A stretch of 64,000 nt of DNA from an uncultured Longilinea sp. (GCA_964536805.1 CAZHYQ010000011.1:17305-81304); one strand, 5' to 3'. Positions 4,027 through 31,405 are shown, counted from the stretch's first letter. The notes: generated by a model not told the origin, from the sequence alone. Translations and numbers: made by a program.

Positions 4027-4551
4027 CTATTGATAAATGGTTTTGAACAGGCGAGTGAAGTCCACCACTACGCTCTCGATTGCGTTGCTGACAGCCGGCG
4101 TGACCGCGTGATCAAATTCGATATCTTCGGGTTGGATCAAGATCAATTCCACCGGGCAGTTGAACTCGTGTTGGATGAATTTTACCAAGACAGATGGCGG
4201 CAGGGTATGGGTGGTGGCGCTCAGCCCGTCGGTTTGCTGCCAGTCAACCAGTTCAATAGTTCCCGGTGCCTCATCCAGAAGGGCGGCGTCAACCAATAAA
4301 ACGCAGTCCGGCTCAAATCGCCGCAAAGGCGCGGTGAATGCCTCGGGAGCCAGGCTGGCTTCAATTAATAAAAGTTGCGGCCGGGAGGCCAGCCGGGCGC
4401 GCAAAGCGCGCACCGCCAGCACCCCGGCCCCATCATCTCCATTTAGCTCGTTGCCAATACCCAGCAGTGCCAGGCGCGGCTTACGATTGAGCGCCGCACT
4501 CAACGTCGCCAGTTTCTGCGCGAGCAGCTCGCTCCAGCAGGAATTGGACAT
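4027..4551 (-). CDS. hycI: Hydrogenase maturation endopeptidase (HycI-type)
   Basis: LLGIGNELNGDDGAG, LLVDAA and TTHTLP motifs. Last gene of the hydrogenase operon. Start chosen at ATG 4551 (MSNSCW). Confidence 0.88.
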   Translation of the reverse strand: MSNSCWSELLAQKLATLSAALNRKPRLALLGIGNELNGDDGAGVLAVRALRARLASRPQLLLIEASLAPEAFTAPLRRFEPDCVLLVDAALLDEAPGTIELVDWQQTDGLSATTHTLPPSVLVKFIQHEFNCPVELILIQPEDIEFDHAVTPAVSNAIESVVVDFTRLFKTIYQ

Positions 4552-4915
4552 CTTCATCCTTACCATAATAAACTTCGAAAGGTTCGCGGGATAATTGTGC
4601 CAGTTCCCAGCCTTCATTTTGCATTTGAATGCATTGGAAGCGGCAATTTACCACGCATTGCGCGCAGAAGGTGCAGCGGTCTTCGTGGTAGCGCATCACG
4701 AATTTCTTGGCTACCTTGTCCAAGACAATCAGTTCGATTGCATCCGCTGGGCAATCTTTGATGCACAACTGGCAGCCCGAGCATTTCGCCGGATCCCAAA
4801 CCAGTCGTCCGCGCAGGTTCTCTGGCGCAGGTTTACGTTGAAACGGGTAAAGTTCCGTTACCGGGCGTTTAAAGAGCGATCGGAAAATATCGCCGAACAT
4901 TGCACCAATAGCCAT
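4481..4915 (-). CDS. 2x[4Fe-4S] ferredoxin-like hydrogenase subunit (NuoI/HycF/MbhN-like)
   Basis: CSGCQLCIKDCP and CTFCAQCVVNC motifs, and the N-terminal FKRPVTELYPF...RGRL typical of NuoI/HycF. Confidence 0.93.
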   Translation of the reverse strand: MAIGAMFGDIFRSLFKRPVTELYPFQRKPAPENLRGRLVWDPAKCSGCQLCIKDCPADAIELIVLDKVAKKFVMRYHEDRCTFCAQCVVNCRFQCIQMQNEGWELAQLSREPFEVYYGKDEDVQFLLERAARAETGDVECGAQS

Positions 4916-4927
4916 GCCAATACCTCC

Positions 4928-5863
4928 TTAGAAGAGCGGGCCGATCTGGCGGCCAATAATGATGGCCAGCAGTTGAAGCAGGCCAACCAGCGCTCCGACG
5001 CGCCACCACATGCCCACCGTTTGATCAATGCGCAGACGGGCAAACAGCGATTGCAGTCCGGCTGTCACCAATAATAACAGACCGGTTTTCCACAGAAAAT
5101 CGAGCGGATTGGCCAGGCCGCCCATGTAGAATGTGGCGATCAGGGTCAGGCCGATGACCAGTTCTACGTCCTTGCCGATGCGGAAAAGCGCCAGGCCGCG
5201 GCCTGAATATTCGGTCAGTGCACCGGAAACAATTTCGGTTTCGGCTTCAGGCGCATCGAAGGGAGAAAGTTCCAGCTTGCCCATCAGCCCAACCAGCGCC
5301 ACCAGGAAACCGATTGGCTGCGCCGCGATCATCCAGACATTTCCACGGGCATAGGCATTGATTTCGCTGATATTCCAGCTCCCGGCCGCAATGGCCGGCC
5401 CAAGCAGCGCCAAAAGGAAAGGTGCTTCATAGGAGAATATCTGGGTGAGCGTGCGGGTTGCGCCAATGATGGAGAAGCGGGAGATGTTATTCGCGCCAGC
5501 CAGTCCGATGCAGATGGTCAGCGCGCTGAGCAGGTAAAAGACGACGATCAAGTCGCCGCGGAAATTATAGGAGGCGGTAAAGCCTGCCAGCGGCACATAT
5601 AAGGCGGCCGTCAAAGCGGAGGTTAACGCGATGATGGGCAGGGCATGAAACAAGCCGGTATGCGCCCCGGTTGGAACGATTTCTTCCTTGGAGAGCAGCT
5701 TGAAGATATCGGCCAGCGGTTGAAACCAGCGCGGTCCAATGCGGTTCTGGAAACGAGCCACCAGTTTGCGGTCAGCCCATTCATAAACCAGCCCGCTCCC
5801 CAGCAGGAAAAGGCCACCAGGGAAGAACAGGAGCAGCAGGATGGAAGGTAATGGTAGGTTCAT
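4928..5863 (-). CDS. Complex I subunit-1 family membrane anchor (NuoH/HycD/MbhM-like)
   Basis: RKLVARFQNRIGP..FQPLADIFKLLSKE and PFDAPEAETEIVSGALTEYSG motifs. Confidence 0.95.
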   Translation of the reverse strand: MNLPLPSILLLLFFPGGLFLLGSGLVYEWADRKLVARFQNRIGPRWFQPLADIFKLLSKEEIVPTGAHTGLFHALPIIALTSALTAALYVPLAGFTASYNFRGDLIVVFYLLSALTICIGLAGANNISRFSIIGATRTLTQIFSYEAPFLLALLGPAIAAGSWNISEINAYARGNVWMIAAQPIGFLVALVGLMGKLELSPFDAPEAETEIVSGALTEYSGRGLALFRIGKDVELVIGLTLIATFYMGGLANPLDFLWKTGLLLLVTAGLQSLFARLRIDQTVGMWWRVGALVGLLQLLAIIIGRQIGPLF

Positions 5864-7050
5864 CGGTAGTACTCGATTCCGTGTTGGCGAAGATCTTCCC
5901 AGGTCCAGACCTGGGTGTCGTTCGTGCGGTGGATCTTGATCAGGCGGTCATTGCAGGAGAAGCACGGATCAATACCGGCCAGGATCATGGGGATATCCGC
6001 CAGCTTGTGGCCGACCGCAAAGTTGATGACCGTTGCCCAATTGCATAGGCTGGGTGTGCGGACTTTGACCCGTTCTGGTTTCTCGCTGCCGTTGCTTTTC
6101 AAGAAGTAGAATAATTCGCCGCGCGGTGCTTCAACCCGGCTGACGGTTTCACCTGCCGGGATCTTGCGCGGGACGCGCGTGGTTAATTCGCCCTCCGGCA
6201 TGTGGTCGAGCATCTCGCGGATCAGGCGGTAGCAATCGAATAATTCTTTTAACCGAACCACAAAGCGCGCCAGCAAGTCGCCGTTTTCATCGGTGATGAC
6301 ATTGATCGGGAAGGTCTTGTAGGCTGCGTAGGGCGCTGAGTCGCGGATATCGATGGTGACGCCTGACGCCCGTGCCGTCGGCCCGACAGCACCAAGTTCG
6401 ATGGCCTGTTCTTTGGTCATTGTGCCGATATCGCGTGTGCGGCCGAGGAAGGTTTCATCGGTGGTGACAACTTTCATGTAGTGGTGGGTGCGCTGTTCAA
6501 GGAAATCAATTCCCTTGAGGATCATGTCGCGTTGTTTGTCGTCGATGTCAAACTTCACGCCGCCCAGAACATTGGCCGAGTAATGAACGCGGTTGCCGCT
6601 GATGGTTTCGAGAATATCCATGACCGTTTCGCGATCGCGCCACGAGTACATGAACAAGGTGTCAAAACCGCCTTCGTGCGCAGCCACGCCCAACCAGAGC
6701 ATATGACTATGGATCCGTTCAAGTTCGGCTACCAGGGTTCGGATGACCTGTGCCCGCGGGGGAGCTTCCACCTTGGCGAGCTGCTCCACACCTGCGACAT
6801 AAGCGGTGTTATGGACGTGCGAGCAAATTCCGCAAATGCGTTCCAACAGGTAGATATTTTGCGTCCAATTGCGGTCCTCTGTGCCCTTTTCGATACCGCG
6901 ATGAACGTACCCCAACCGGACAGAGGCTCCGGTGACAATTTCACCATCCACGGCGAATTCAAAATGCCCAGGTTCCTTCAGGGCGGGGTGCTGGGGACCG
7001 ATTGGAACGATAAACTTCTGGTTTGTTTCCTGTCCGATCATCGGGTTCAC
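5860..7050 (-). CDS. Group 4 [NiFe]-hydrogenase large subunit (MbhL/HycE-like)
   Basis: L1 motif ERICGICSHVH and L2 motif DPCFSCNDR (all four Ni-Fe Cys present), followed by a C-terminal extension for proteolytic maturation. Confidence 0.95.
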   Translation of the reverse strand: MNPMIGQETNQKFIVPIGPQHPALKEPGHFEFAVDGEIVTGASVRLGYVHRGIEKGTEDRNWTQNIYLLERICGICSHVHNTAYVAGVEQLAKVEAPPRAQVIRTLVAELERIHSHMLWLGVAAHEGGFDTLFMYSWRDRETVMDILETISGNRVHYSANVLGGVKFDIDDKQRDMILKGIDFLEQRTHHYMKVVTTDETFLGRTRDIGTMTKEQAIELGAVGPTARASGVTIDIRDSAPYAAYKTFPINVITDENGDLLARFVVRLKELFDCYRLIREMLDHMPEGELTTRVPRKIPAGETVSRVEAPRGELFYFLKSNGSEKPERVKVRTPSLCNWATVINFAVGHKLADIPMILAGIDPCFSCNDRLIKIHRTNDTQVWTWEDLRQHGIEYYR

Positions 7051-7547
7051 TCCTTTCCTTCGGCTGCCGGCGCGGCAAAGCCAGTGAAAGCTTTACGAAG
7101 CGGGTAAATCCCTTCAGGCCATTCATCGGGCAGCACCAAACGGCTGGTGTCGGGGGTGTTTTCAACGGTCACGCCGAAGAGTTCAATCAACTCCCGTTCG
7201 TAGAGGGTCGCATAGGGAAAAAGGTCGCAGATTGTCGGCAAGACAGCGTCGTCGTAAGGCAGGCTGACCCGCAGGGTCAGCACCGCGTAACCGGTGGCGA
7301 AATGGTAAAGCGCTTCCAGATTGCCTTCCCCGGCCGGTTGTCCTTCTTGCGGGGCAGGTGCAGCGGCATCCAGGCCGGAAATGGTCACCAGGTAGCCCCA
7401 GGAGGCTGTTTTGAGCGCCTGTACGGCCTCATGCAGGTCCTTCCTGGCAATTACGATATCGCTGCGGTTCGCTTCCGGGCGAAGGGTGCTAACCGCCCAG
7501 GGCTGCAGCAGGGATTCGCCATTTTGTAAGTTCATTTCGGTATCCAT
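7047..7547 (-). CDS. NuoC/MbhK-like 30-kDa-family subunit
   Basis: YLVTISGLD...LYHF, ATLYERELIELFGV and LVLPDEWPEGIYPLRK motifs. Confidence 0.92.
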   Translation of the reverse strand: MDTEMNLQNGESLLQPWAVSTLRPEANRSDIVIARKDLHEAVQALKTASWGYLVTISGLDAAAPAPQEGQPAGEGNLEALYHFATGYAVLTLRVSLPYDDAVLPTICDLFPYATLYERELIELFGVTVENTPDTSRLVLPDEWPEGIYPLRKAFTGFAAPAAEGKE

Positions 7548-7558
7548 CAGTCAGCCTC

Positions 7559-8029
7559 CTATTTGGGTTTCAAGCTCTGAAGCAAGGCCACAACACCCTG
7601 AATGATGGCTTCAGGCCGCGGCGGGCAGCCCGGGATGTAGGCGCTGACCGGAAGAATCTCATCAATCCCGCCGAGGATATTGTAGCAATCATGGAAGGCG
7701 CCGCCCGAGAGGGCGCAGGATCCGATGGCCACGACAAATTTTGGATCTGGCATCTGTTCATAAATACGAAGCAGCCTGTCGCGTGATTGGCGGGTCACCG
7801 GGCCGGTGGCAAGCAGTACATCGGCATGGCGGGGACTTCCTTCCAACTTGACACCAAAACGCTCCAGATCATAGCGCGGAGTCAGTGTTGCCAGGATTTC
7901 AATGTCGCAGCCATTGCAGGAGCCGCTGTTATAGTGGATAACCCAGGGCGAATTGATGCGTGCCCAGGCGCGCAGACCATCCATGACTTTTTGCATGGGA
8001 CTTACGGGGTTCTGTACTTGAATATCCAT
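7559..8029 (-). CDS. Hydrogenase small subunit (NuoB/HycG/MbhJ-like)
   Basis: GSCNGCDIE, SPRHADVLLATG, VAIGSCALSGG and IPGCPPRPE motifs. Start taken at ATG 8029. Confidence 0.94.
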   Translation of the reverse strand: MDIQVQNPVSPMQKVMDGLRAWARINSPWVIHYNSGSCNGCDIEILATLTPRYDLERFGVKLEGSPRHADVLLATGPVTRQSRDRLLRIYEQMPDPKFVVAIGSCALSGGAFHDCYNILGGIDEILPVSAYIPGCPPRPEAIIQGVVALLQSLKPK

Positions 8030-8051
8030 AATAGAATCCTGTCCTTTCCAC

Positions 8052-8363
8052 TCAACCCAGCAGCAGGGCAATCAGGGCCAGCATCAACCCCACCAGGAAG
8101 GGTACGATGGCGGTGGTAAAACTTCCAAGGCCCAAGACCAGCATGCCAAGGTGGAGAATGGCAAAGAAAAGGGCAATCACGAAGAAGGGTGTGTAGCCAG
8201 GGGCGGCGCTTTTGGTGGGGGATTCTTCACCCGAGCCGTAAGCGGAGCTCTTGACAGCATCTTCCTTCGTCGGACCAGCCAGTTGTCTGCCAATCCAATA
8301 AATTATCAGTACGAGCGGGATGTAAATTACAAATGCAAGAGGCGGGGTTAACAGAATATTCAT
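8052..8363 (-). CDS. NuoA/MbhI-like small membrane subunit
   Basis: 103 aa with three hydrophobic segments. The loop KSSAYGSGE resembles the NuoA K..PYECG loop, and FFVIALFFAILH matches NuoA TM2 style. Confidence 0.75.
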   Translation of the reverse strand: MNILLTPPLAFVIYIPLVLIIYWIGRQLAGPTKEDAVKSSAYGSGEESPTKSAAPGYTPFFVIALFFAILHLGMLVLGLGSFTTAIVPFLVGLMLALIALLLG

Positions 8364-8378
8364 CGTTTTCCTCCTCGA

Positions 8379-9896
8379 TTAGCCGCCCATCAGCAGGAAC
8401 AGGCTGAGCGCCGCCCGGCTGGTAAGATCGGTGAGCAGTGAAGGCCAGACGCCTAGAACCACAATTGCCAAAGCCAGCAGCACCATCGGTGCAGCCATCA
8501 ATGGGGAAATTGGTTTGCCTTCCAGTACTTTCTGCGAAGGTTGACCGCGGTAAAGCCGGTTGACAATGGGAGCATAGTAGCCCAGGGAGAGCACGCTGTT
8601 GAGAGCGGCAAAAATCACCAGGATAAGCGCCACCGTGCTGCCCGTTTCGACGCCTGCGACGAAAATCTGCCATTTGGACATGAAACCAGCCAGCGGCGGC
8701 AATCCGCCCAGCGCCAGAACCGCCAGGCTGAAGGTAAAGGCTGTCACCGGATAGCGCTTCGATGCGCCGTTCAGATCGTCCAGGGTCAGAGGACCGTGGT
8801 GTCCGTTGGCAATATAGAGCGCGTAGAGCAAGGCGCCGGCTGAAAGGAAGGCCAGACCCTTCATGAGGGCGTGGTTGAAGAGGTGGAAGAAACCGCCGAT
8901 GGCGCCGTTGGCCGAACCGAAGACGAACGCCATCCCAAAACCAATCAACATGTAACCAACGTGGCTGAGGCTGGAGTATGCCAGCAGCCGTTTGACCTGG
9001 GTCTGGCGCAGAGCCATCAAGTTGCCGACCACCAGGTTGAGCACCCCAAATACCAGCAGCAGGATGCCCCAGGCATGGCTGGCGGCATAGAGAAAGCCCA
9101 GGGAGCGCAGCATGGCGACCAGGCCGGCTTCGATGACAATGCCGGAGAGCATGGCGCTGATGCCGCTGGGAGCCTGCGAATGCGCATCCGGAAGCCATGT
9201 ATGCAGCGGAACCAGGGCTGTTTTGACGCCAAAACCGATGATGAATAAGGCGCCCGCAATCTGCAGCAGCGGATCGGCGGATTGGGCAGCCTGGCGCAGC
9301 AGATCGAGCCTCAGCGTACCGGTGGCAGCAAAGGCGAGGGCGATGCCCAACATCACCAATGTGGAGCCGGTGGCGCTTTGAACCATGTACTTGAAGCCCG
9401 CTTCCAGCGAGGCTTTCTGATCGCGGTAGAAGGCTACCAGGAAGTAGGATGTTATGGCCATGGCCTCGAACCACAGCCACAGGTTGAACAAATCGGTGGC
9501 GCAGCCCAGACCAATGATCGTGCCGACCATGGCGGTCAACAGCGCGTAAAACTTTTCCTCGCCGATTTCTGCCTGCATGTAGGCGCTTGAAAACAGCGTT
9601 ACCAGAGCGCCCAGAACCAAAACGGTGACCGCCAGGAAAAGCCCCAACCCGTCCATCGTCAGGGTGAGATCCCCAAAGGTGAGGCTGACGCCGGTGTAAT
9701 TCGCGGTGGCGCCGATTCCGGCAAAGTAGGTGAACACGCCCGTTGCAAGCAGTGCCAGCAGCGCAACCCAGCGGGCTGGGTTGGCTGTACTGGAACTGCC
9801 GTTTTGGCGCGCCCAAAGACGCCCAATCAAATAGATGATGGGAGAAGCTACCAGGGGCAGCCCGATGACTAGAGTGAAAGCGATCGTTGCATTCAT
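8379..9896 (-). CDS. Antiporter-like proton-translocating subunit (MrpD/NuoN/MbhH family)
   Basis: DLFNLWLWFEAM, EAGFKYM, FGVKTALVPLHTWLPDAH..AP, KRLLAYSS, GGLPPLAGFMSK motifs. Confidence 0.93.
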   Translation of the reverse strand: MNATIAFTLVIGLPLVASPIIYLIGRLWARQNGSSSTANPARWVALLALLATGVFTYFAGIGATANYTGVSLTFGDLTLTMDGLGLFLAVTVLVLGALVTLFSSAYMQAEIGEEKFYALLTAMVGTIIGLGCATDLFNLWLWFEAMAITSYFLVAFYRDQKASLEAGFKYMVQSATGSTLVMLGIALAFAATGTLRLDLLRQAAQSADPLLQIAGALFIIGFGVKTALVPLHTWLPDAHSQAPSGISAMLSGIVIEAGLVAMLRSLGFLYAASHAWGILLLVFGVLNLVVGNLMALRQTQVKRLLAYSSLSHVGYMLIGFGMAFVFGSANGAIGGFFHLFNHALMKGLAFLSAGALLYALYIANGHHGPLTLDDLNGASKRYPVTAFTFSLAVLALGGLPPLAGFMSKWQIFVAGVETGSTVALILVIFAALNSVLSLGYYAPIVNRLYRGQPSQKVLEGKPISPLMAAPMVLLALAIVVLGVWPSLLTDLTSRAALSLFLLMGG

Positions 9897-9898
9897 GG

Positions 9899-11647
9899 CT
9901 ACCCTCCGAAGACCACAACCAACAGCACCAGGATCAAGCCGGCGATGATACCGAGGATGTTCCAGTTGAGCAGGCCGGTCTGGGTTACGCGCAGGGCTTC
10001 TGCGGTGTTTTGCGTGCCCTTGACGATGCCGCGGTTGATGGCCTCAAAGCCGAAGCTGTCCGTTGCTGCCTTTCCCACGCCTTTCAGGGAATTGGCCAGG
10101 CCGGAGAGTTTGTCGCGCCACCACCAGGCCGCCAGCCCAAGCGCAATAACTGCCAGGGCAATCAGGGTCGGCAGGCTAAGCACATCGTGGATCACTTCGC
10201 CCAGCGACGAGATTTCGATCCCGTGGGCTGGCAGCGTTTCAGCTCCCAGCAGCTTGCCAAAAGAGCCGGCCAGAAGCCAGGATGTGAGAGAGGCAAAGGC
10301 TAACGGGATGAGCGCCACTTTCATGGCAGGTCCGGCGTCGTGCACGTGTTTTTCGACATGCGTTTCGCCGAAGAAGACCATCCAGATGCAGCGGAAGGTA
10401 TAGAGGGCTGTGATGCCAGCGCCGATCAGCATCACAATGTAAGTCCAGATTGGAGCGCCGGCCAGCCCGGCTTCGAGGATCATCTCCTTGCTCCAAAAGC
10501 CGTTCAGGATGGGGATACCGGCCAGGGACAGCCCACCGATAATGAAAACGGCGCGCACAAGCGGCATTTGCTTGCCTAAACCACCCATCTGGCGCATATC
10601 GCGCGTACCAACCGCATGGATGATCGCGCCTGCACTGAGGAAGAGCAGCGCTTTGAATATGGAATGGCTGAAGAGGTGGAACTGGCTGGCATACAAACCG
10701 CCGGCGCCGACCGCATAAAACATATAACCCAGCTGGCTGACGGTGGAGTAAGCCAGGACGCGCTTGAGGTCGTTGGAAACCAGTGCCATAATGGCAGCCA
10801 TGATGGCAGTGACCATGCCAACCAGCAACACCGCCGTTGTCCAACCCGGAACGCCCTTGAAGGCCGGGTAGAAGCGGGCCATCAGGTACACGCCCGCATT
10901 GACCATGGTGGCTGCATGGATGAGCGCGCTGATAGGTGTGGGAGCTTCCATCGCGTCCGGCAACCAGGTTTGGAAGGGGAATTGGGCTGACTTGGCGGCT
11001 GCTGCTACCAGAAAGCCGAAAGCCATCACCGCCAGCAAATTGCCTGGCATGAGGGCCGGGTTGTTGATCAGGGTATTGAAATCCATCGAACCGGTGACGG
11101 CGAAAAGCAGCAATGCACCAGCCAGCAGGCCAACGCCGCCGAACTGAGTGATAATGAGCGCCTTGATGCCAGCTGCAACTGCCTTGGGATCGTCGTTGTA
11201 GAAGGAGATCAGCGCATAAGAACACAATGCCGTGATTTCCCAGAAGAAAAAGACCAGCAGCATGTTGCTGGTGAGCACCAACCCGGACATGCCGCCGATG
11301 AAGAACAACACCATGGCATAATAGCGCCCGAGTTGATCTTCGCCGTGCATATAATCGACCGAAAAAATGACGGCCAATGAACCAATCACAGTTGCGACAA
11401 CGGTCAGGAAGACGCCTAACCCGTCAGCCACAAAGGTGAAATCGCCAAAAACGCTGCCAACAGGGAAGCTGACAACGGTCTGGCTGGATGCGTAAGGGAT
11501 GAGTGCAACGCCTGCGCCGCCAGCCAGTAAGGCAAAGGCGACGGCAATGCGGTGTTTGACGCCGGGTTGGTTATTGCCGACCAACCAGACCACCAGGCCG
11601 CCCACCCAGGGAATTGCGATTGTGAGAAGTAATAATGTGGCTGCCAT
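9899..11647 (-). CDS. Antiporter-like subunit (NuoL/MrpA family)
   Basis: FFWEITALCSY, AAKSAQFPFQTWLPDAMEAPTPISALIHAATMV, KRVLAYSTVSQLG and HSIFKALLF motifs, plus a C-terminal lateral helix and final TM. Confidence 0.95.
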   Translation of the reverse strand: MAATLLLLTIAIPWVGGLVVWLVGNNQPGVKHRIAVAFALLAGGAGVALIPYASSQTVVSFPVGSVFGDFTFVADGLGVFLTVVATVIGSLAVIFSVDYMHGEDQLGRYYAMVLFFIGGMSGLVLTSNMLLVFFFWEITALCSYALISFYNDDPKAVAAGIKALIITQFGGVGLLAGALLLFAVTGSMDFNTLINNPALMPGNLLAVMAFGFLVAAAAKSAQFPFQTWLPDAMEAPTPISALIHAATMVNAGVYLMARFYPAFKGVPGWTTAVLLVGMVTAIMAAIMALVSNDLKRVLAYSTVSQLGYMFYAVGAGGLYASQFHLFSHSIFKALLFLSAGAIIHAVGTRDMRQMGGLGKQMPLVRAVFIIGGLSLAGIPILNGFWSKEMILEAGLAGAPIWTYIVMLIGAGITALYTFRCIWMVFFGETHVEKHVHDAGPAMKVALIPLAFASLTSWLLAGSFGKLLGAETLPAHGIEISSLGEVIHDVLSLPTLIALAVIALGLAAWWWRDKLSGLANSLKGVGKAATDSFGFEAINRGIVKGTQNTAEALRVTQTGLLNWNILGIIAGLILVLLVVVFGG

Positions 11648-11650
11648 GGT

Positions 11651-11962
11651 TTATCTCCGCAAGGTGGTGAGCGCTTTAACGTCCAGGGTGCCAACATGGC
11701 GGCGGATTTGAACGGCCAACGCCAGGCCGATCACCGCGACGATGGTGTCGGAGACGATGATGGTCAAAGCCATGCTCTGTGCCAATGCCATATCGCTGCG
11801 CAGACGGCCGGCAAGGGCAAAAGCCACCAGAACACCTTTGACCATGATTTGCAGGGCGATAATCATCTTGATCAGGTTGCGGACCGCCAGCAGGGCATAC
11901 AGCCCAATGCCGACCAACCCGAGAATGACGATGCCAGCGATGACAGGAATGGAAAGCGTCAT
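11651..11962 (-). CDS. NuoK/MrpC/MbhG-like subunit
   Basis: 103 aa with three TM helices. GLYALL..RNLIKMIIALQIM and the C-terminal DVKALTTLRR resemble NuoK. Confidence 0.88.
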   Translation of the reverse strand: MTLSIPVIAGIVILGLVGIGLYALLAVRNLIKMIIALQIMVKGVLVAFALAGRLRSDMALAQSMALTIIVSDTIVAVIGLALAVQIRRHVGTLDVKALTTLRR

Positions 11963-12438
11963 TCTTCCACCTCTTCTTTCTTGCCATCCGCGAGGAGACC
12001 CAACATGGCTAAAGCGCCTGCAAAAATCAATACTGCCTGCAGGAATACATCCAGGCTGCGTGATTGCCACAACGTGGTACCCAGGTCGCTGGCGGCCAGA
12101 ACTGGGGCGGCAACATCCACCCCAGGCAGCATCAGCCAACCGACCAGGAGTCCTGAAATTGCGATAACAGCCCATGCCAACGGGCGGGGAATCAATGGGT
12201 GGGCAGCCAGGGCTTCTTCACCGGAAATGTTGATGGCAAAAACAAACAACACGGTGACCAGACCGGCGCCCACGCTCAGTTCAATGACGGCAATTTCCGC
12301 AGCACCCAGGAGAAAGAGAAACAGGGCCACCAGGGCGCTTGATCCGGCCAGCCAAAGGGCTGATACCAGCAGGCGTTGTGCCCTGATCGCCATGACGGCG
12401 CATAGCAGAATTCCCACCATGACGAGAATTTGCCACAT
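11959..12438 (-). CDS. NuoJ/MbhD(E)-like membrane subunit (DUF4040-like)
   Basis: GGAGG RBS before ATG 12438. Motifs GAAEIAVIELSVGAGLVTVLFVFA and RSLDVFLQ. First gene of the operon. Confidence 0.8.
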   Translation of the reverse strand: MWQILVMVGILLCAVMAIRAQRLLVSALWLAGSSALVALFLFLLGAAEIAVIELSVGAGLVTVLFVFAINISGEEALAAHPLIPRPLAWAVIAISGLLVGWLMLPGVDVAAPVLAASDLGTTLWQSRSLDVFLQAVLIFAGALAMLGLLADGKKEEVEE

Positions 12439-13293: not shown

Positions 13294-16200
13294 TTATGGT
13301 GCAATGGTCAGTAGGCTGCCCGCACTCGTGGCTTCGACCTCGGGGAAGTAATAAATGAAGGCATGCGCTGGCAGCACTTGAAATTCGCCGGAGGTTATCG
13401 GGACAAGCTGGTAGGTAAGCTCGTACGTACCGGCGGGCAGATAGGGCGCCACCCAGGTGACATTCTCATCACCGATCTGCGGATCTCCAAAGTACCACCA
13501 GCCCCAACCCTGGCTGAACGGATTGCGCGGGTTGTACTGCGGCCCGATGACTTGATCGGTTTGGTTTTGCTGGCTGGTCTTCAGACTCAGGTCAAGTACC
13601 TCTGCACCGGCAGGCAGCCAATCTTCCACCACTGCGTAGTATTGATCCGATGGCACCGTCAGCGAGAGGCGCACCCACACGGTTGTGTCAGCCTGCAAAC
13701 GGACGCTGGTCACTTCCGGACAATCGGGCAACTTACAATTACCAGTTACCTGGTAATAACGCCGTTCAAGGGTCATGCCCCGGCTGACCGGTTTTGCGTC
13801 CTGCGCCGGCCGGTTGACTTGCAAATAGGCACGGTAATACAATCGCCCATTTCCTGCCTGGCGGGAAATCAACAGTTCATTGGGGACGGATAACAACTGG
13901 CTCAATGGCACATTGGCGCGTACCGGATTGAGCGCGTTAACGCCCCCGGCGACGCCGCTGGCAAGCGGTGCGCCATTCAGGGTTGCGCCAAAGCTGAAAT
14001 TCGCCTGAAGATCACCGGTTCCTTTCATGGTCTCGATCAGGGCCGTGATCACCCAGGCTGATTCATAACTGGTTGACCAGCCGCCAATTTCCTTCCGATT
14101 GGTGATCAGATAGCGGGTCGCATCCACCAATAACGGGCTGGCTGGATCGAGGCGGGCGAGTGCATAAGTGACAATTGCGGTACTTAAATTGCGCGAGACG
14201 AAATTTTGCCGGTATTCAACCGCATCCTGCCAGTTAACGCCAGTGGCGGAACGCAAGGCGGTCGCCTGCAAATCGGAGAGCAGCGTGGCGGTATCGGCGT
14301 TACCGGGGTCCAGTTTATCCAGTGTCAATGCCAGCAAGGCCTTTGCCCATGGATTCAGACGGCTGCGGAAGGGCAGCAATGCTAGCGGTTCCTGGGCGGT
14401 TTGGCCTGCCTCGGCGAGTACGAAATGCTGAAACGCCAGGCGGTCAAGTTGAAAATCTTCGCTGGACATTTGCGGCGTCAGTAAACTAGCCTGTAAATAT
14501 TGCACGCCGTTGTTGAAGACCTTGGTGGAAACATCAAAACCGGCCTCTCTGGCACGAATCAGCGCCCAGACGGCATAGATGGAAATCTGGGGATCGCTGA
14601 GGGAGGTTGCATCCCAACCCCAACCGCCGTCCGATTTCTGACGGGCGAGCAATTTGGGTAAATCGGCAGTCACCTGCGCGCTCAGTTGGTCCTCCAGGAC
14701 GGAATTGCTAATTCCAAGGTCCTTCAAGGCGCGGTAGGTTTCCAGATTGGGGAGGATGCGCGAAATCAACGCTTCGGTAAAATCGAAACGATTCTGTTCG
14801 ATGATGGTCAAGTCCGAAAGTACAGTTGCAGCCAGCGATGGCGTCAATTCAACCTGCAATTCGCCGCTGCGAGCGGTGAAACTGCGCGGAAGCGAAACCG
14901 TTTCCAGCCGATCACCTGCTTCATAAAGGACGCCGGCCGTGCCAAAGGTTTGCGGTGCGGTGAAGCTCAAAACAGGCAGCTTGCCCCAGGTTGGACGGGC
15001 GAAATCCTGCAGTCCGCCGCCCTGGGCTCCAAATACCAGATCCGCTTCCTGATTGAATCCAACCGTACCCCACCATGCCACGCGCTGTTGTGCGCCGGCT
15101 GCGACCTGGATGCTCTGGACCGCCCTGGCAGGTTCATCCAAAACAAAACCGGTTGGTTGCAGGCTGACATCCACGGAGAGATTCTGAGCGGTATTGTTAT
15201 TGACCAGCGCCGCCAATTCGAGGTGATCTCCCGCAACCAGAAAGCGCGGAGTGACCGGCCGCACCAATAAATCTCGCGTGGAAATAATTTCCAGTTCGGT
15301 CTCGCCAACCAGCGAATCTTTTGTAATGCCGCGCACCATGCCGACCCAGGTTGTCACGTTATCCGGCAGCGCCAGACTGAGCTGCGCTCGACCGTTGGCA
15401 TCGGTGACAACCTCGCCGTTCCAAAAGGCGGTATCGCGAAATTCCTCGCGAACGGTTGGAGTGCTTCCCATGTCTCCGCCCCCGCCGCCCCCGCCGCGTC
15501 CGGGCGGAATGGCTAGCGGCCGCTGTCCATAGGCTGCCAGTGAAAGACTGGTTTCAACGCCGAGGGGTTGATCGCCATAATAGGCATCCCTGATCGGGGT
15601 TGAATTCGGGTCAGCCAAAGCCAGCACAGCCTTATCAATCAAAGCCAGCGAAAATTCTCCCTGAACTGGTTTTCCTGCGGAGTCTTTGACCTCCAAATTG
15701 AGGGTCAGGTTTTCGCCGGGGCGGGCTTGTTTGGGTTCGGCTGTCAGCTTCACATCCAGAATCAGCGCAGAAGGATCGACTTTGATTACCGTGTACCCTT
15801 GGCGGAAATCGAAAACCTCGCCATTATTGCCTAAAAGGGTGACTGCAACGTAAACAGTAGGCGCATAATCTTCCGTCAACGGCAGTTGGTAGTCCAACCC
15901 TGAGCCCGTTATCGAGATAACATCGCTGTGCATCACCTTTGCCCGCTCAACCGTGATCAACGCAATTGCACCGCTCGAGAACGGATTGGGTATGAAAATC
16001 CGTGCGGTTTGTCCGGGTTGGTAGGTTTGCGCATCCGGCGACAGGCGTAAACGCTGGTTCGAAAGCTGTGGCCAGGGGGCTGATCCTGCTCCGCTCACCC
16101 ATACCCACACCTGGCTGACGGCATTGCCGTTTGATACTTCCACCTGATAAACCCCCGGTTGGGTGGGCGTGAACGCGATGCGTGCCTGACCATCCGCACC

Positions 16201-19200
16201 GCTGACAAAATCGGTGCTGCCGACAGTCGTATATTCGGGCTCGCTTGAGAATTCGCCGATTTGCGCGTTGTATTTTTGTTTCCAGGTGATTTTTTGAAAT
16301 TGCGCGGTCATGGGAATATTGGCTTTAGCCTGCTGGTCCCAATCCACGGTTAAGATACTGAATCCCAATTCATCACCCGCCTGGCTGCTCCAGGCCTCCG
16401 GCTGAATGCCGATGGCAAACTCGGCCGGAAGCAAGCGCATGCTTCCGCGCCCGCTCACGGGTTGATTGGACGGGTCGGTGATGGTGGCTTCGAGCGTCAA
16501 ATCTTGCAGGGAGGTTGGGCTGAGCCCGGCTAACTGATCGGGAGTAATCGTCAGCGAATATTTTCCCGCAGCATCGGTATTTGCCTGACCGCTCAGGATA
16601 ACCTGGTCAAAGCTATATGGATAGTAAAACGCATTCAACCAGCCGGTATCCATCGGTCCGACCTGGTAGCCGCCGGGAAGATAAAAATTGCTTTGCCGGC
16701 GCGAAAGCGTCCAGTTGATCGGAAGATTGCCGGCCGGAGCGCCGAAATAATAATTTGCGGCAATGGTCGCATGCAGGTTGGACCCGGCCAGCACAGACGG
16801 CTGGTCGAAATTCACTTTTACTTCCATTTCCGGTTTGCGATAATTGGCTACCTGGAAATACTGGTAGGCATCCATGCCGGCAACTTCAAAGTGGTACTGC
16901 CCCGGAGAAGCGCTTTCCGGCAGGGTGAAACTCATGCTGAATGTTCCAAAAGCAGTGAGCGTTTTGCTTTGCTGTTCGATTGTGGCGGTGTTTCCGGTCA
17001 GCGGATCATACGGGCTGACCAGCGACACGGAATAATTGCCGTCAGGCGGGAGTTGATAACGGCCGTTCACCGGCGTGCGGACAATGCCGCGCAGAAAAAC
17101 GGTTTGTCCGGGCCGGTAAATGGGTCGGTCGGTATACAGATAAATGCCCGGTTTGGGCTCCTGTATGAGGGTCGAAATGCCGTAATCCCAACTATTGATC
17201 CCGGCAGACCAGTTGGTCACCGCCAGAGAAAAATCATCATCTCCCGGTTTTCCGGAAATGGCAAAAAGATAATCATAAATTTGGCGTTTCGGCGACAACG
17301 GAATTGCGGCTAGCCCGTTTTCATCCGTATCGCTATTGCCAACCTCGCTCTGGTTTTGGTCGTAGATGTGAATCTTCAGGCCCTTGACGGGTTGGTTCTT
17401 TTCCAAATCAACCGCCCAGACCATGATTTCGTCGATGCTTTCTTTGAGGGTCAATTGAATGTGGGATGAAACCGCCAAAAAATCGTTGTTTGAGGCATTG
17501 GTTCCCCTGATTTGCGGAGAACTTACGCTAAAGGCATACAAACCTGGCTTAAGAGATTGACCGTTGGGGGTTAATTCAATCCCGATGGTCTGGTTGCGAT
17601 TGGCTTCCAGGTTCAAGGTTTGCTGCCAGCGGGTGTCTTTACTTGGATTGACGTTGCCAAGAGCCGCCGCAATAAAATTCAGTTCATCCACCCTGCCGGA
17701 TCGGATGTCCAAAGCAAGCAGGTTGGTGGCGTTGGCTGCCAGCAGGGTGTCATTGGGTGTAAGAAAAACAACCCGGCTTCCTGTGGATTGCACAATGGGA
17801 ATACTCAATAAGGGCTGACTGTCTTTGGTGTTGAATTTCAGGATGTAATCCTGCCCCAGCTGCATGCCCCATTGATCCTTCAGTTCTGCTGACAATGTAA
17901 GGGCATATTCGGTGCTGGGGGCGAAGTAACCGCTGATGTTCAAAGACTTTTCGCTTGAATAATAGTAGTTTTCGCTGATGGGCGGGTCGAATTTCACCAA
18001 TTCAGCGAAATCCTGGTTTTGTGCCAGCGGCGATGAGAAGGAAAAGGATAAACCGCCGTATCCGCCATAATTCTGCAAGTTTCCGTTCTGAGGTGGATCG
18101 GTTTTCACCACTGACAGCGCTGGAACGCTGCGATACGTTTCGTCCACGGCCGAATTAAGCGGCGTGCCGCCCAGGCCAGCGGCTTGTTTGGATAATTGCA
18201 GGGTGTAATTAACATCCCGATCCAGCAGCGCTGTTGGTTTAAACGTTACACTGGTCGAGTCATCGCTCCAGGTAAAGCTGCCTGCGATTGGACTACCTCC
18301 CTGGGGGGAAAACTGAAAAGCGCCTTCAACGCTGCTGCGGTTAACGGGCTGGTTAAAGGTTAACGTAATGGGAGCATCCAGACCGATTACACTGCCGGAG
18401 GCTGGTTCGAGGTTTACCAGGCTCGGGACGGCAGTGCTGAATGACCAGTTGAATTTGACGTCGGGTGAAAGAGAACTGCCTGATTGGCTTGTCAGGTCTG
18501 GGTTGATTCTAATGGAATAGGTCACCCCGCCTTGTAGAGCAGGATCGGGATAGAAAATGTATGTGCTGGTGTTGATCCACTCACCGCGTCCTTCCACGGC
18601 AGGTTTTATGGTAAAGGCCTCCGGTGAAGTAGTTGTTTCCCCCAACGCCACCACGGGCAGGTTGAAAGTTGCCACAATCGCCGAAGTTGGGTCAACATCA
18701 GTGCTTTCCGGGCGCGGTAAACGTTCGGTTGCGCTTAAAAATGGCGAGGTCTGGTAATGAAAAGAAATCAGGTCCGCCATGGCCAGACCGTTTGCGGCCG
18801 TCGCGCTTTTTTCCAAAGATACCGTCAAGGATGTATCAGGCGGCAGTGGCTTGTCCGGGATAAATCGCATGGTGGAATCATCCGGCCACTCAAATTTGCC
18901 AGCCAGAGCTGGTTCGGTATGCAGTGCGCCCTCCACCGAGGAACGCTGCATCGGTTGATTGAAAAAAACGGTGACGGCGCCATTTGCCGTCAGATCGCTG
19001 TTAGGCAGCGGATCCGTTTCCACCACTGCAGCCGGCAGCGGTTTGGCGGCAGTCACCGCAACCGGAGTTGCAGACTGTACGGTCGGCGTGGCTGTGCGGG
19101 TGATCACGGGTAAATTGCAGCCTGAACTGATTAACATCAAAATGATGATCAGGCTGAAGAATATTCTGCTTAAAGGTAAACGTTTCTTATCAATTTTCCC

Positions 19201-19215
19201 GGGGATGGATTTCAT
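13294..19215 (-). CDS. Bacterial alpha-2-macroglobulin family lipoprotein with N-terminal Ig-like (Big_5-type) repeats
   Basis: Lipobox LISSG-C; three repeats of V.FN.P(M/V)...VE..F; MG domain IYLYTDRPIYRPGQTV; bait region GRGGGGGG..VREEFRDTAFW; LPDNVTTW; QKSDGGWGW; C-terminal DWLPAGAE...YLPAGTYELTY. Confidence 0.93.
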   Translation of the reverse strand: MKSIPGKIDKKRLPLSRIFFSLIIILMLISSGCNLPVITRTATPTVQSATPVAVTAAKPLPAAVVETDPLPNSDLTANGAVTVFFNQPMQRSSVEGALHTEPALAGKFEWPDDSTMRFIPDKPLPPDTSLTVSLEKSATAANGLAMADLISFHYQTSPFLSATERLPRPESTDVDPTSAIVATFNLPVVALGETTTSPEAFTIKPAVEGRGEWINTSTYIFYPDPALQGGVTYSIRINPDLTSQSGSSLSPDVKFNWSFSTAVPSLVNLEPASGSVIGLDAPITLTFNQPVNRSSVEGAFQFSPQGGSPIAGSFTWSDDSTSVTFKPTALLDRDVNYTLQLSKQAAGLGGTPLNSAVDETYRSVPALSVVKTDPPQNGNLQNYGGYGGLSFSFSSPLAQNQDFAELVKFDPPISENYYYSSEKSLNISGYFAPSTEYALTLSAELKDQWGMQLGQDYILKFNTKDSQPLLSIPIVQSTGSRVVFLTPNDTLLAANATNLLALDIRSGRVDELNFIAAALGNVNPSKDTRWQQTLNLEANRNQTIGIELTPNGQSLKPGLYAFSVSSPQIRGTNASNNDFLAVSSHIQLTLKESIDEIMVWAVDLEKNQPVKGLKIHIYDQNQSEVGNSDTDENGLAAIPLSPKRQIYDYLFAISGKPGDDDFSLAVTNWSAGINSWDYGISTLIQEPKPGIYLYTDRPIYRPGQTVFLRGIVRTPVNGRYQLPPDGNYSVSLVSPYDPLTGNTATIEQQSKTLTAFGTFSMSFTLPESASPGQYHFEVAGMDAYQYFQVANYRKPEMEVKVNFDQPSVLAGSNLHATIAANYYFGAPAGNLPINWTLSRRQSNFYLPGGYQVGPMDTGWLNAFYYPYSFDQVILSGQANTDAAGKYSLTITPDQLAGLSPTSLQDLTLEATITDPSNQPVSGRGSMRLLPAEFAIGIQPEAWSSQAGDELGFSILTVDWDQQAKANIPMTAQFQKITWKQKYNAQIGEFSSEPEYTTVGSTDFVSGADGQARIAFTPTQPGVYQVEVSNGNAVSQVWVWVSGAGSAPWPQLSNQRLRLSPDAQTYQPGQTARIFIPNPFSSGAIALITVERAKVMHSDVISITGSGLDYQLPLTEDYAPTVYVAVTLLGNNGEVFDFRQGYTVIKVDPSALILDVKLTAEPKQARPGENLTLNLEVKDSAGKPVQGEFSLALIDKAVLALADPNSTPIRDAYYGDQPLGVETSLSLAAYGQRPLAIPPGRGGGGGGGDMGSTPTVREEFRDTAFWNGEVVTDANGRAQLSLALPDNVTTWVGMVRGITKDSLVGETELEIISTRDLLVRPVTPRFLVAGDHLELAALVNNNTAQNLSVDVSLQPTGFVLDEPARAVQSIQVAAGAQQRVAWWGTVGFNQEADLVFGAQGGGLQDFARPTWGKLPVLSFTAPQTFGTAGVLYEAGDRLETVSLPRSFTARSGELQVELTPSLAATVLSDLTIIEQNRFDFTEALISRILPNLETYRALKDLGISNSVLEDQLSAQVTADLPKLLARQKSDGGWGWDATSLSDPQISIYAVWALIRAREAGFDVSTKVFNNGVQYLQASLLTPQMSSEDFQLDRLAFQHFVLAEAGQTAQEPLALLPFRSRLNPWAKALLALTLDKLDPGNADTATLLSDLQATALRSATGVNWQDAVEYRQNFVSRNLSTAIVTYALARLDPASPLLVDATRYLITNRKEIGGWSTSYESAWVITALIETMKGTGDLQANFSFGATLNGAPLASGVAGGVNALNPVRANVPLSQLLSVPNELLISRQAGNGRLYYRAYLQVNRPAQDAKPVSRGMTLERRYYQVTGNCKLPDCPEVTSVRLQADTTVWVRLSLTVPSDQYYAVVEDWLPAGAEVLDLSLKTSQQNQTDQVIGPQYNPRNPFSQGWGWWYFGDPQIGDENVTWVAPYLPAGTYELTYQLVPITSGEFQVLPAHAFIYYFPEVEATSAGSLLTIAP

Positions 19216-23865: not shown

Positions 23866-23961
23866 GGGAGTGGATGAGTTCCGGTGGGCTCCCCGGTCTT
23901 CAAAACCGGTGACGGGTCGCGTTGCGGGCCGTGGTGGGTTCGACTCCCATCCATTCCTGCC
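23866..23961 (+). tRNA. selC: tRNA-Sec (anticodon UCA)
   Basis: Manual fold: 8-bp acceptor GGGAGTGG/CCATTCCT; 6-bp D stem GAGTTC/GGGCTC with loop CGGT; anticodon loop CTTCAAA; long variable arm; 5-bp T stem with TTCGACT loop; discriminator G at 23959. Confidence 0.95.
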
Positions 23962-26449: not shown

Positions 26450-28183
26450 ATGAATAATGAAGAAATTGCCGCTATTTTTGATCGCATCGCCGATCTATCA
26501 GAAATCAAGGGCGAAATCATCTATAAAACGCTGGCCTACCGCCGGGCGGCGGAGAACATCCGCAACCTGGGCGCCGATGTTGAAGCTGTACATCACGAAG
26601 GCAAACTGCTAGAAATTCCGGGGGTTGGCAAAGCCATTGCCGAAAAGATCGATGAATTGCTGACCACCGGCAAGCTTGAGTTTCTGGAAAAATTGGAGCG
26701 GGAAGTACCCCCGACCCTGGTTGATTTGCTGCAAGTGCCGGACGTCGGACCCAAAAAAGCTGCCATGTTTTGGAAGCAAGGCGGGATCACCTCCCTAGCC
26801 GACCTGGAAACGGCCGCCCGGGCTGGCAAATTGCGCGGGTTACCCGGCATGGGCGAGAAATCCGAAACGCGCATATTGGCGGGTCTGGAAGCTTTGGGGC
26901 GGCGGAGCAAACGCTTGCCGCTGGGGGTGGCCTTGCCCATTGCGCTGCGTTGGGTAGATTGGCTGCGTAAATTGCCCGGGATCGAGCAGGTGGAAGCCGC
27001 CGGCAGTTTGCGCAGGCGAAAAATCACAATCGGAGACCTGGATTTTGTCGCGGCTGCCCGCGATACGCAGCCCATCATGGAAGCATTTATCCATCACCCC
27101 GAAGTACAACGCATTGTCGGCCAGGGGGAAAACAAATCCAGCATCGAAACAACAGGCGGGATTAATATGCAGCTCTGGATCCAACCCCCCGAGCGCTTCG
27201 GCACCTTGCTGCAGTTCGTCACGGGGTCCAAAGAGCATAATGTAAGGCTGCGCGAATTGGCTCAAAAAAAGGGTCTTTCACTGTCGGAACAGTCCATTAG
27301 CAGCGAGGATGGCAGCGAAAGGTTCTTTGCCGACGAAAATGGCGTATATGCAGCCTTGGGGCTTCCCTGGATACCGCCTGAAATGCGCGAGGACCGCGGC
27401 GAAATCGCGGCTGCCCTGGCTGGCAAGCTGCCGCACCTTTTGAAACGATCGGACCTGGTTGCCGACCTGCATGTCCATTCAACCTGGAGCGACGGCGCAG
27501 CCACCATTGCCGAAATGGCGGCCGCTGCCCGCGATCGGGGTTTGAAGGTATTGGCGATCAGCGATCATTCCGGCAGCCTGGGGGTGGCAGGGGGCATGTC
27601 GGTGGAAAAACTGCACGAGCGCCGGGCGGAGATTGCCAGCGTGCAGGAGAAAATGGGCAATTCCTTGCGGCTGCTGCAGGGAGCCGAGGTTGAAATTCAC
27701 GCCGACGGCAGCCTGGATTATTCCGACGATGTGCTGGCTGAATTGGATGTGGTCGTGGCATCGCTGCATTCAAGCCTACGCCAACCACGCGAACAAATCA
27801 CCGAACGTCTGTTACGGGCCATGCGAAATCCGCATGTGGATATCATCGGGCATCCTTCCGGTCGGCTGCTGCCAAACCGTGAAGGGGCTGATCTGGATTG
27901 GGACCAGGTATTGGGTACAGCAAAGGAAACGGGTGTTGCATTGGAAATCAATGCCCATCCCTCCCGCCTCGATCTGGATGAGGTGTATTCGAGGCGGGCG
28001 GCTGAAATGGGCATTCTGCTCAGCCTAAATACGGATGCGCACGCCCCCGACCAGTTGGACCTGATTGAATATGGCATCAGTGCAACCCGGCGCGCCTGGT
28101 TGGAACCGGATCAGATTATCAATGCCTGGCCGGTGGAACAATTATTGGCGTGGTTGGAAAAACGGGGAAATCATCGCGATTAA
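26450..28183 (+). CDS. polX: DNA polymerase X / PHP 3'-5' exonuclease
   Basis: HhH motifs IPGVGK, VPDVGPKK and LPGMGEK; GSLRR..TIGDLD; FVTGSKEHN; PHP motifs DLHVHS.WSDG, SDH, GHPSGR and NTDAH. Confidence 0.95.
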   Translation: MNNEEIAAIFDRIADLSEIKGEIIYKTLAYRRAAENIRNLGADVEAVHHEGKLLEIPGVGKAIAEKIDELLTTGKLEFLEKLEREVPPTLVDLLQVPDVGPKKAAMFWKQGGITSLADLETAARAGKLRGLPGMGEKSETRILAGLEALGRRSKRLPLGVALPIALRWVDWLRKLPGIEQVEAAGSLRRRKITIGDLDFVAAARDTQPIMEAFIHHPEVQRIVGQGENKSSIETTGGINMQLWIQPPERFGTLLQFVTGSKEHNVRLRELAQKKGLSLSEQSISSEDGSERFFADENGVYAALGLPWIPPEMREDRGEIAAALAGKLPHLLKRSDLVADLHVHSTWSDGAATIAEMAAAARDRGLKVLAISDHSGSLGVAGGMSVEKLHERRAEIASVQEKMGNSLRLLQGAEVEIHADGSLDYSDDVLAELDVVVASLHSSLRQPREQITERLLRAMRNPHVDIIGHPSGRLLPNREGADLDWDQVLGTAKETGVALEINAHPSRLDLDEVYSRRAAEMGILLSLNTDAHAPDQLDLIEYGISATRRAWLEPDQIINAWPVEQLLAWLEKRGNHRD

Positions 28184-31229: not shown

Positions 31230-31405
31230 TCCGGTCCTGAGTGCTGGTTGAGGTGATTATACATCAAAGCCCTGGGTTGATTGCCAGGCTACTGGTTACT
31301 AAGCAACATCCGTGCCAGTTAGGCCGTCCAGTAAAAGGCATTCAACCTGACTTGAGTTGACCAAGGGGACCTGACCGTTGGTATGCAATTATTAGCGGAT
31401 ACGGT

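Follow-up and report, generated by a model that had tools for sequence, protein, structure and literature searches.

What kind of energy-converting complex is encoded at positions 4027-12438 of a 64,000-nucleotide stretch of DNA from an uncultured Longilinea sp. (GCA_964536805.1, CAZHYQ010000011.1:17305-81304; this whole stretch is hereafter the window), and is its membrane arm of a kind not seen before? An earlier reading of the sequence alone (the original prediction) had proposed an energy-converting [NiFe]-hydrogenase with a complex-I-like arm of only two antiporter subunits, and had taken this to be an intermediate architecture. We find that the locus is an operon for an intact ten-subunit membrane-bound group 4 [NiFe]-hydrogenase together with its own maturation protease. 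Overall we consider it quite probable that the enzyme is a ferredoxin-driven, H2-evolving and ion-pumping complex of a Longilinea fermenter.

All eleven genes were found in the predicted order and at the predicted coordinates, running on the minus strand from 12438 to 4027. The genes are tightly packed, and because they either overlap (ATGA overlaps at J/K, C/D and D/H) or stand 2-22 nt apart, they form a single operon. Subunit identities come from Pfam and NCBIfam profile matches and from sequence comparison with the Protein Data Bank (PDB), as follows.

11959-12438, minus strand: J subunit, 159 amino acids (aa), about five transmembrane (TM) helices, NuoJ/ND6-like with an MbhD-like N-terminal half (Pfam MbhD 4.5e-8, Oxidored_q3 5e-8)
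11651-11962, minus strand: K subunit, 103 aa, three TM helices, NuoK/MbhG/MrpC-like (Pfam Oxidored_q2 2.5e-16)
9899-11647, minus strand: L subunit, 582 aa, antiporter-like of the NuoL/MrpA class (Proton_antipo_N/M; NCBIfam NuoL 461 bits, MrpA 367 bits)
8379-9896, minus strand: M subunit, 505 aa, 14 TM helices, antiporter-like of the MbhH/MrpD class (Pfam Proton_antipo_M 1.7e-64)
8052-8363, minus strand: A subunit, 103 aa, three TM helices, NuoA/ND3-like (Pfam Oxidored_q4 4e-5, 24.2 bits against a cut-off of 23.3)
7559-8029, minus strand: B, hydrogenase small subunit, 156 aa (Pfam Oxidored_q6 6.7e-33, NCBIfam nuoB_fam)
7047-7547, minus strand: C subunit, 166 aa, NuoC/MbhK-like (Pfam Complex1_30kDa 1.3e-24)
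5860-7050, minus strand: D, [NiFe] large subunit, 396 aa (Pfam Complex1_49kDa and NiFeSe_Hases)
4928-5863, minus strand: H subunit, 311 aa, NuoH/MbhM-like membrane anchor (Pfam NADHdh 1.8e-71)
4481-4915, minus strand: I subunit, 144 aa, NuoI/MbhN/EchF-like (Pfam Fer4/Fer4_7, NCBIfam NuoI-type models)
4027-4557, minus strand: HycI-type maturation endopeptidase, about 175 aa (Pfam HycI 1.3e-11)

The J gene begins with an ATG that has GGAGG ahead of it, and B has an alternative TTG start at 8071. The start of the HycI gene is uncertain (4551, 4557 or 4617); the gene overlaps the 3' end of I, an overlap that is kept in orthologous loci.

Catalytic module and membrane arm

The large subunit D has the L1 motif RICGICSHVH and the L2 motif DPCFSCNDR with all four Ni-Fe cysteines present (...LLERICGICSHVH... 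and ...IDPCFSCNDR), followed by a C-terminal tail of 27 aa. Alignment with the PDB also places a glutamate of D at the position of MbhL E21, a proton-relay residue, and among solved structures D matches MbhL (295 bits) better than HycE (256) and Nqo4 (216). The small subunit B carries the four cysteines for one [4Fe-4S] cluster (CNGC, GSC, GCPP), and its CNGC is of the hydrogenase type, in contrast to the tandem CC of NuoB proteins, the NuoB of this genome included. Subunit I has two [4Fe-4S] motifs, CSGCQLCIKDCP and CTFCAQCVVNCR, and is the presumed docking site of ferredoxin. The sequence hallmarks of group 4 are present, namely L1 (RxCGxCxxxH), L2 (DPCxxCxxR), NuoB-like, NuoI-like and NuoH-like subunits and at least one antiporter-like subunit. 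Because D combines the Ni-Fe motifs with a 27-residue tail and an MbhL-E21-type glutamate, and because B has CNGC, we agree with the original prediction that the operon encodes a hydrogenase and not complex I; the HycI gene and a large-subunit tree that keeps D apart from complex I (see below) point the same way.

In the membrane arm, exactly two antiporter-like subunits were detected by Pfam, NCBIfam and PDB matches, alongside the NuoA/H/J/K-like subunits, as had been predicted. The best PDB match of J is MbhD (6cfw_D, 36.6 bits), followed by NuoJ, with alignment over the full length, and K matches MbhG (34.7 bits) and NuoK (31.5 bits) nearly equally. In 60 of 60 Anaerolineae orthologues K has invariant Q38, K42, D72 and T73 that replace the glutamates E36 and E72 of NuoK. 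A glutamate at the first of these NuoK positions is retained in the K homologue of Methanoregula and in that of an unassigned relative that is 49% identical, and one aligns there in the Bathyarchaeota homologue as well. Subunit M is closest to MbhH (6cfw_H, 236 bits), with MbsH (174) and NuoN (132) behind, and has a lysine at the TM12 position. For subunit A the orthologue alignment shows an invariant TM1-2 loop (Y42-x-S-G45-E46, P55-G56-Y57) and an invariant H71; its sole PDB match is ND3 (E = 0.12), and no match to MbhI was found in the PDB.

Subunit L differs from M in its affinities, with 283-286 bits to NdhF/NuoL, 249 to MrpA and far fewer, 175, to MbhH, and it keeps NuoL's TM5 glutamate, TM7 lysine, His/His/Lys and TM12 Lys-Glu. 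An AlphaFold2 model of L built with 28 orthologues (predicted local distance difference test score 84, predicted template modelling score 0.88) has TM15 at 494-509, amphipathic lateral helices at 515-555 and a C-terminal anchor helix, TM16, at 561-581. Foldseek searches with this model returned NuoL/ND5/NdhF and MrpA as top matches, with a TM-score of about 0.8. The linker between TM15 and TM16 is 56 aa long here, 68-71 aa in two relatives with three antiporter modules, 80-88 aa in Escherichia coli and in the NuoL of this genome, and 112 aa in the Bathyarchaeota L. Such a short linker would fit a helix that spans one neighbour, a comparison that is only suggestive, and we did not accept lateral-helix length as proof of a two-module arm.

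Based on these per-subunit matches to solved structures and on the L model, the complex is a mosaic in which an MBH-like hydrogenase module is joined to an MbhH-like pump, a NuoL/MrpA-type distal subunit and a NuoA-like subunit, without an MrpEFG/MbhABC side (MBH, membrane-bound hydrogenase).

Relatives and distribution in Anaerolineae

To place the large subunit, we searched exhaustively, took the 150 best-matching representatives of 50%-identity clusters and added E. coli HycE, HyfG and NuoCD, MbhL from the PDB alignment, and the NuoD and NuoCD of this genome; trees were built with FastTree and IQ-TREE and rooted on NuoD. The Anaerolineae sequences form a clade with a Shimodaira-Hasegawa-like approximate likelihood ratio test (SH-aLRT) value of 100. 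A second Anaerolineae type, from Pelolinea sp., whose large subunit has 360 aa and no tail, is sister to this clade (88.9), and both types fall inside a 27-member clade (90.1) together with a Methanoregula 'membrane-bound hydrogenase' and a Bathyarchaeota enzyme with fused C and D. The MbhL (4d) clade is sister to this larger clade, with weak support (57). HycE/HyfG and complex I branch far away, and the NuoD and NuoCD of this genome fall in a separate clade. A position as sister group of complex I was therefore ruled out, since in both the FastTree and IQ-TREE analyses the clade nests among Mbh-like and 4g-like hydrogenases. With this tree as a proxy, the HydDB subgroup of the Anaerolineae enzyme is likely 4g or 4d, because HydDB assigns its bathyarchaeal clade-mate, Hfo, to 4g (Loh et al., bioRxiv 10.1101/2020.12.10.419648). 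Group 4g itself is polyphyletic and heterogeneous (PMC13582414).

The loci of these relatives differ in their antiporter genes. The Methanoregula locus reads J1-J2-K, a 1094-aa protein with two antiporter domains, a 490-aa protein, and then A-B-C-D-H-I-HycI. Pelolinea-type loci read J1-J2-K-652-488-503-A-B-C-D-H-I (670-499-501 in another genome), with three antiporter-like genes and no HycI protease gene beside their tail-less D. The Bathyarchaeota locus is arranged A-B-CD-H-I-J-K-L-M-N with an FrhB-like gene, and its Ni-Fe motifs are intact. In the unassigned 49%-identical relative, two antiporter genes precede J-K-A-B-C-D-H-I-HycI. Because these loci show two or three antiporter modules, the number of modules varies within one clade, and the Anaerolineaceae type is the two-module form. 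Close relatives of the Anaerolineaceae enzyme with the same or nearly the same gene order have three modules.

Two further observations were made on these relatives. In the 49%-identical locus (L085:3446-6396), hypA, hypB and a hypF that is truncated are found immediately upstream, and the first antiporter-like gene is a 334-aa C-terminal piece, so that a rearrangement or an assembly join is possible. Tail-less large subunits that end right after CxxCxxR occur in genomes of the family (G264, G308, G301) and of the class (G113, G072, G159, G098, G030).

Conservation of the operon was surveyed on contigs from one genome per species, where 344 stretches encode a relative; 80 of these were taken for comparison. 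Wherever a locus among the 80, which represent about 80 Anaerolineae species, is long enough to show it, the genes stand in the order J-K-L-M-A-B-C-D-H-I-HycI; carriers of this order include Longilinea arvoryzae KOME-1, Leptolinea sp. HRD-7, Ornatilinea apprima, Bellilinea caldifistulae and Anaerolinea thermophila. Both Ni-Fe motifs are present in 75 of the 80 loci. The arrangement is therefore not due to chance, given that its order is kept across so many species and the Ni-Fe motifs in most loci. D shares 94% identity with a protein of Longilinea arvoryzae, and Anaerolineaceae supply thousands of homologues of more than 70% identity. Within the organism's family 80 of 121 genomes, belonging to 53 of 74 genera, have a D orthologue; with even sampling of the whole class, 13 of 201 genomes have a close D orthologue and 6 more a relative of 50-55% identity. 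Because of this spread and constant gene order, the operon of the window is a typical member of a family that is common in Anaerolineaceae. Our literature searches found no paper specifically describing the Anaerolineae enzyme.

In contrast to the operon, its flanks are not conserved. Clustering of the flanking open reading frames (ORFs) of 40 loci gave only alpha-2-macroglobulin (14 of 40), and neither formate dehydrogenase, carbon monoxide dehydrogenase, ferredoxin nor hyp genes were a conserved neighbour in these loci. The flanking genes identified here by profile scan are an alpha-2-macroglobulin, a 157-aa ORF without a family, a PMT_2-like membrane protein and a HerA-like ATPase. The first of these (13294-19215, minus strand) is a 1973-aa bacterial alpha-2-macroglobulin-like protein with Big_5 domains, situated upstream of the operon, where such a gene is the most frequent neighbour, with no apparent functional link to it.

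Elsewhere in the window an Rfam scan returned a selenocysteine tRNA gene alone (23866-23958, plus strand; 71 bits), unrelated to the hydrogenase operon; the organism therefore uses selenocysteine. D has cysteine at all four of its ligand positions. A SecA homologue at 52719-56795 (minus strand) has an unusual length of 1358 aa; its DEAD-like domain takes up 402 residues where the model has 290 positions, and its P-loop and wing domains are split, which suggests large insertions, possibly an intein. A 777-aa ORF at 28896-31229 (minus strand) has no Pfam match at E ≤ 1e-5. Promoter and terminator scans gave counts no higher than the shuffled expectation.

Genome context, proposed mechanism and alternatives

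The assembly (3.18 Mb, 80 contigs, 93% complete) encodes two sets of complex I genes and further hydrogenases. A complete 14-gene nuo operon lies on contig C9 (66.6-80.9 kb), and a second complex I is split between C1 (B, a fused 580-aa C-D, and I at 304126-307191) and C27 (A-H-J-K-L at 28038-31881), where the locus runs off the contig end. There is also a group 1-like, uptake-type hydrogenase on C17 and a group 3-like hydrogenase on C3, the latter adjoining a full hypABFCDE set that contains the sole HypD match of the genome, consistent with the predicted lack of hyp genes in the window. When L and M were used in tblastn searches of the whole assembly, the only other antiporter-like genes to turn up were those of the two complex I loci. 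MrpE (PF01899) had no match in this 93%-complete genome, with control genomes responding; MrpF and MrpG were not searched separately. A third antiporter or an Mrp module from elsewhere was ruled out as a candidate on the basis of these searches. The operon itself has no MrpE/F/G module and no formate dehydrogenase, carbon monoxide dehydrogenase or NuoEFG input module among its genes, in agreement with the original prediction. Since no dedicated input module is present, ferredoxin is the likely electron donor; a 1200-aa pyruvate:ferredoxin oxidoreductase and two further 2-oxoacid:ferredoxin oxidoreductase-type genes are encoded in the genome.

In the mechanism that we propose, reduced ferredoxin from these oxidoreductases would dock on the NuoI-like subunit I, and electrons would travel along the two [4Fe-4S] clusters of I and the one cluster of B to the Ni-Fe site in D, where two protons would be reduced to H2. 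The free energy would be handed over at the D/B/H interface and, by way of the NuoH-, NuoA-, NuoJ- and NuoK-like subunits, to M and L, which may then move H+, or less likely Na+, outward, with the lateral helix and C-terminal anchor of L clamping M. Surplus fermentation electrons would leave as H2 and the cell would gain membrane potential from fermentation, above all when a partner holds H2 low. D would be matured by Hyp proteins encoded on another contig, with the HycI of the operon cutting off the 27-residue tail. Two characterised relatives that share the core, the MBH of Pyrococcus furiosus and the Ech2 of Thermoanaerobacter kivui, work in this way. We infer the donor, direction, ion and stoichiometry of the enzyme, as well as a complex-I-like membrane order H-A/J/K-M-L; this order is favored because L is a complete NuoL/MrpA-type subunit with a clamp helix, the NuoA-like A has a TM1-2 loop that is invariant, and the MrpEFG side is absent. 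The 'distinct stoichiometry' of the original prediction was conjecture.

Several points weigh against this mechanism. K lacks the two glutamates that are important in complex I and has invariant Q38/K42/D72 instead, so its coupling chemistry may differ from that of complex I. The free energy between ferredoxin and H2 is small, and therefore the three putative ion paths (E-channel, M and L) may not all pump one ion each. The presence of uptake-type and group 3 hydrogenases and of two complex I operons means that the organism is no simple fermenter. Finally, the order of the membrane subunits could follow MBH instead of complex I. In such an arm, H would dock on an antiporter-like subunit and J/K would be distal, as might be expected from a gene order colinear with mbhD/E-G-H-I-J-K-L-M-N and from the closeness of M, J and K to Mbh subunits. 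However, L, as a full subunit of the NuoL/MrpA type, has a lateral helix and an anchor of its own, and from our reading of the Mrp and MBH structures it would fill the face where MbhM docks. A, moreover, is NuoA-like with a conserved TM1-2 loop and without an MbhI match, and there are no MrpEFG-like subunits of the kind that close off the J/K side of MBH and Mrp. We consider an MBH-like arm the less likely arrangement, though one of appreciable probability.

The same enzyme might also run mainly in reverse in vivo, with membrane potential driving H2-dependent ferredoxin reduction as proposed for Eha/Ehb, methanogen Ech and Hfo. Group 4 enzymes are reversible, the respiratory complexes of this genome could supply the potential, and Hfo, from the same large-subunit clade, has been proposed to work towards ferredoxin reduction (Loh et al., bioRxiv 10.1101/2020.12.10.419648). 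Yet the genome's pyruvate- and other 2-oxoacid-oxidizing enzymes make reduced ferredoxin, and the 40 flanking regions have no ferredoxin-consuming CO2-fixation module near the operon. Cultured Anaerolineaceae, moreover, are H2-producing fermenters that are aided by methanogens, and we regard predominantly reverse operation as improbable. We assign similarly little likelihood to a Na+ pump, or a coupled H+/Na+ device as in MBH, in place of a H+ pump. The closest solved relatives of D, M, J and K belong to the MBH of Pyrococcus furiosus, which yields a Na+ gradient, and K has unusual invariant polar residues; but the Na+ path of MBH and Mrp is attributed to the MrpEFG/MbhABC-side module, for which the operon has no genes, with MrpE absent from the genome, and the Ech2 of Thermoanaerobacter kivui, likewise without an Mrp module, translocates H+. 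That the complex is incomplete as encoded, with a third antiporter, Mrp subunits or a formate or carbon monoxide dehydrogenase input supplied from elsewhere, is very improbable: the assembly is indeed fragmented and 93% complete, with one complex I operon running off a contig end, and close relatives do carry three antiporter modules, but about 80 species have the same eleven genes, with nothing added, on long contigs or in complete genomes, the flanks are unconserved, there is no MrpE, and the L linker has 56 aa against 68-112 aa in three-module systems.

Returning to ferredoxin-driven H2 evolution coupled to ion pumping, a more specific form of this reading is that the arm is a true complex-I arm (H-A/J/K-M-L) that has lost one antiporter module relative to its three-module sisters, with a correspondingly short L helix and a rewired K (Q38/K42/D72), which together would set a lower ratio of ions per two electrons, matched to the very small energy between ferredoxin and H2. 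This we offer tentatively, as a possibility more apt to fail than to hold. If true, it would provide a culturable bacterial model for the tuning of pump stoichiometry along the lineage from hydrogenase to complex I.

Anaerolineaceae are among the most abundant fermenters of anaerobic digesters, sediments and rice soils, and the operon is probably their main route of energy-conserving H2 release to methanogens. Until now, the complex-I-like hydrogenases known have been those of archaeal metagenomes (Hfo, Heimdallarchaeia), MBH, and the Ech2 of T. kivui, which is built differently. Several carriers of the operon are in culture, thermophiles among them (Longilinea arvoryzae, Bellilinea caldifistulae, Anaerolinea thermophila, Ornatilinea apprima, Leptolinea sp. 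HRD-7), so that the family could serve as a practical bacterial system for the structure and ion stoichiometry of such enzymes.

Comparison with known systems

The closest solved system is the MBH of P. furiosus (MbhA-N, 6CFW, 4d), which gives the best structural matches for D, M, J and K and whose mbhD/E-G-H-I-J-K-L-M-N genes are colinear with the Anaerolineae order J-K-(L)-M-A-B-C-D-H-I. In both, the entry subunit is NuoI-like and would suit ferredoxin, and both have the Ni-Fe motifs and the proton-relay glutamate. Unlike MBH, the Anaerolineae operon lacks MbhA/B/C (MrpEFG), a module found in none of the loci, as well as MbhF; it has an extra NuoL/MrpA-type L with a lateral helix, and so two antiporter-like subunits where MBH has MbhH alone and carries its lateral helix on MbhI, a single fused NuoJ-like protein as J, a NuoA-like gene at the mbhI position, a D with a cleavable tail and a HycI protease in the operon. 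It is thus not MBH in the strict sense.

The Hfo of Bathyarchaeia (4g) is a published Fpo-like 11-subunit [NiFe]-hydrogenase of complex-I architecture (Loh et al., bioRxiv 10.1101/2020.12.10.419648). It shares with the Anaerolineae enzyme the NuoA/B/C/D/H/I/J/K/L/M-type set, the intact Ni-Fe ligands and the lack of NuoEFG, and the Bathyarchaeota homologue is 47% identical and a member of the same large-subunit clade (SH-aLRT 90). Hfo differs in being archaeal and in having three antiporter-like subunits among its eleven, the canonical nuo/fpo order, a fused C-D, an FrhB-like neighbouring gene and an L that is longer (649 aa, with the 112-aa linker), whereas in the Anaerolineae operon two of the ten homologues are antiporter-like and the order is J-K-L-M-A-B-C-D-H-I. 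The group 4 hydrogenases of Heimdallarchaeia (4j/4m/4p/4q), also archaeal, have shortened, complex-I-like membrane arms (Appler et al., bioRxiv 10.1101/2024.07.04.601786); their likeness to the Anaerolineae enzyme is drawn from the published description.

The original prediction had started from the premise that known enzymes have either one or three antiporters, and this premise was incomplete. The T. kivui Ech2 (4g) has a NuoL-like Ech2A1 and a NuoM-like Ech2A2 without an Mrp module (PMC4320612, PMC9356269), and the purified enzyme couples ferredoxin-dependent H2 evolution to H+ translocation (PMC9356269). The P. furiosus MBS likewise has two antiporter-like chains (PDB 6u8y). The likeness of Ech2 to the Anaerolineae enzyme, which is one of subunit composition, lies in its two antiporter-like subunits and its lack of an Mrp module; it differs in having eight subunits, a HycB-type polyferredoxin among them, in having no separate NuoA/J/K-like genes reported, and in gene order.

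Complex I (Nuo, 11-14 subunits) has homologues here for 10 of its 11 core subunits, among them the NuoA-like subunit and a subunit of NuoL type that has a lateral helix. In contrast to complex I, all four Ni-Fe cysteines remain in the Anaerolineae D, the motif of B is CxxC and not CC, there is one antiporter-like subunit fewer, and HycI is present. The operon is also distinct from Ech (4e), with ten structural genes including NuoA/J/K-like ones and a second antiporter versus the six-subunit EchABCDEF with one antiporter, and from Hyc/Hyf (4a), as C and D are separate genes and neither HycB nor a formate dehydrogenase is nearby. Intermediates between hydrogenases and complex I had already been proposed in print, and the architecture described here is no newly found intermediate. 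Current views are not overturned; rather, the Anaerolineae enzyme is a bacterial variant of the known Mbh/Hfo/Ech2 kind and adds a bacterial branch to an already recognised series.

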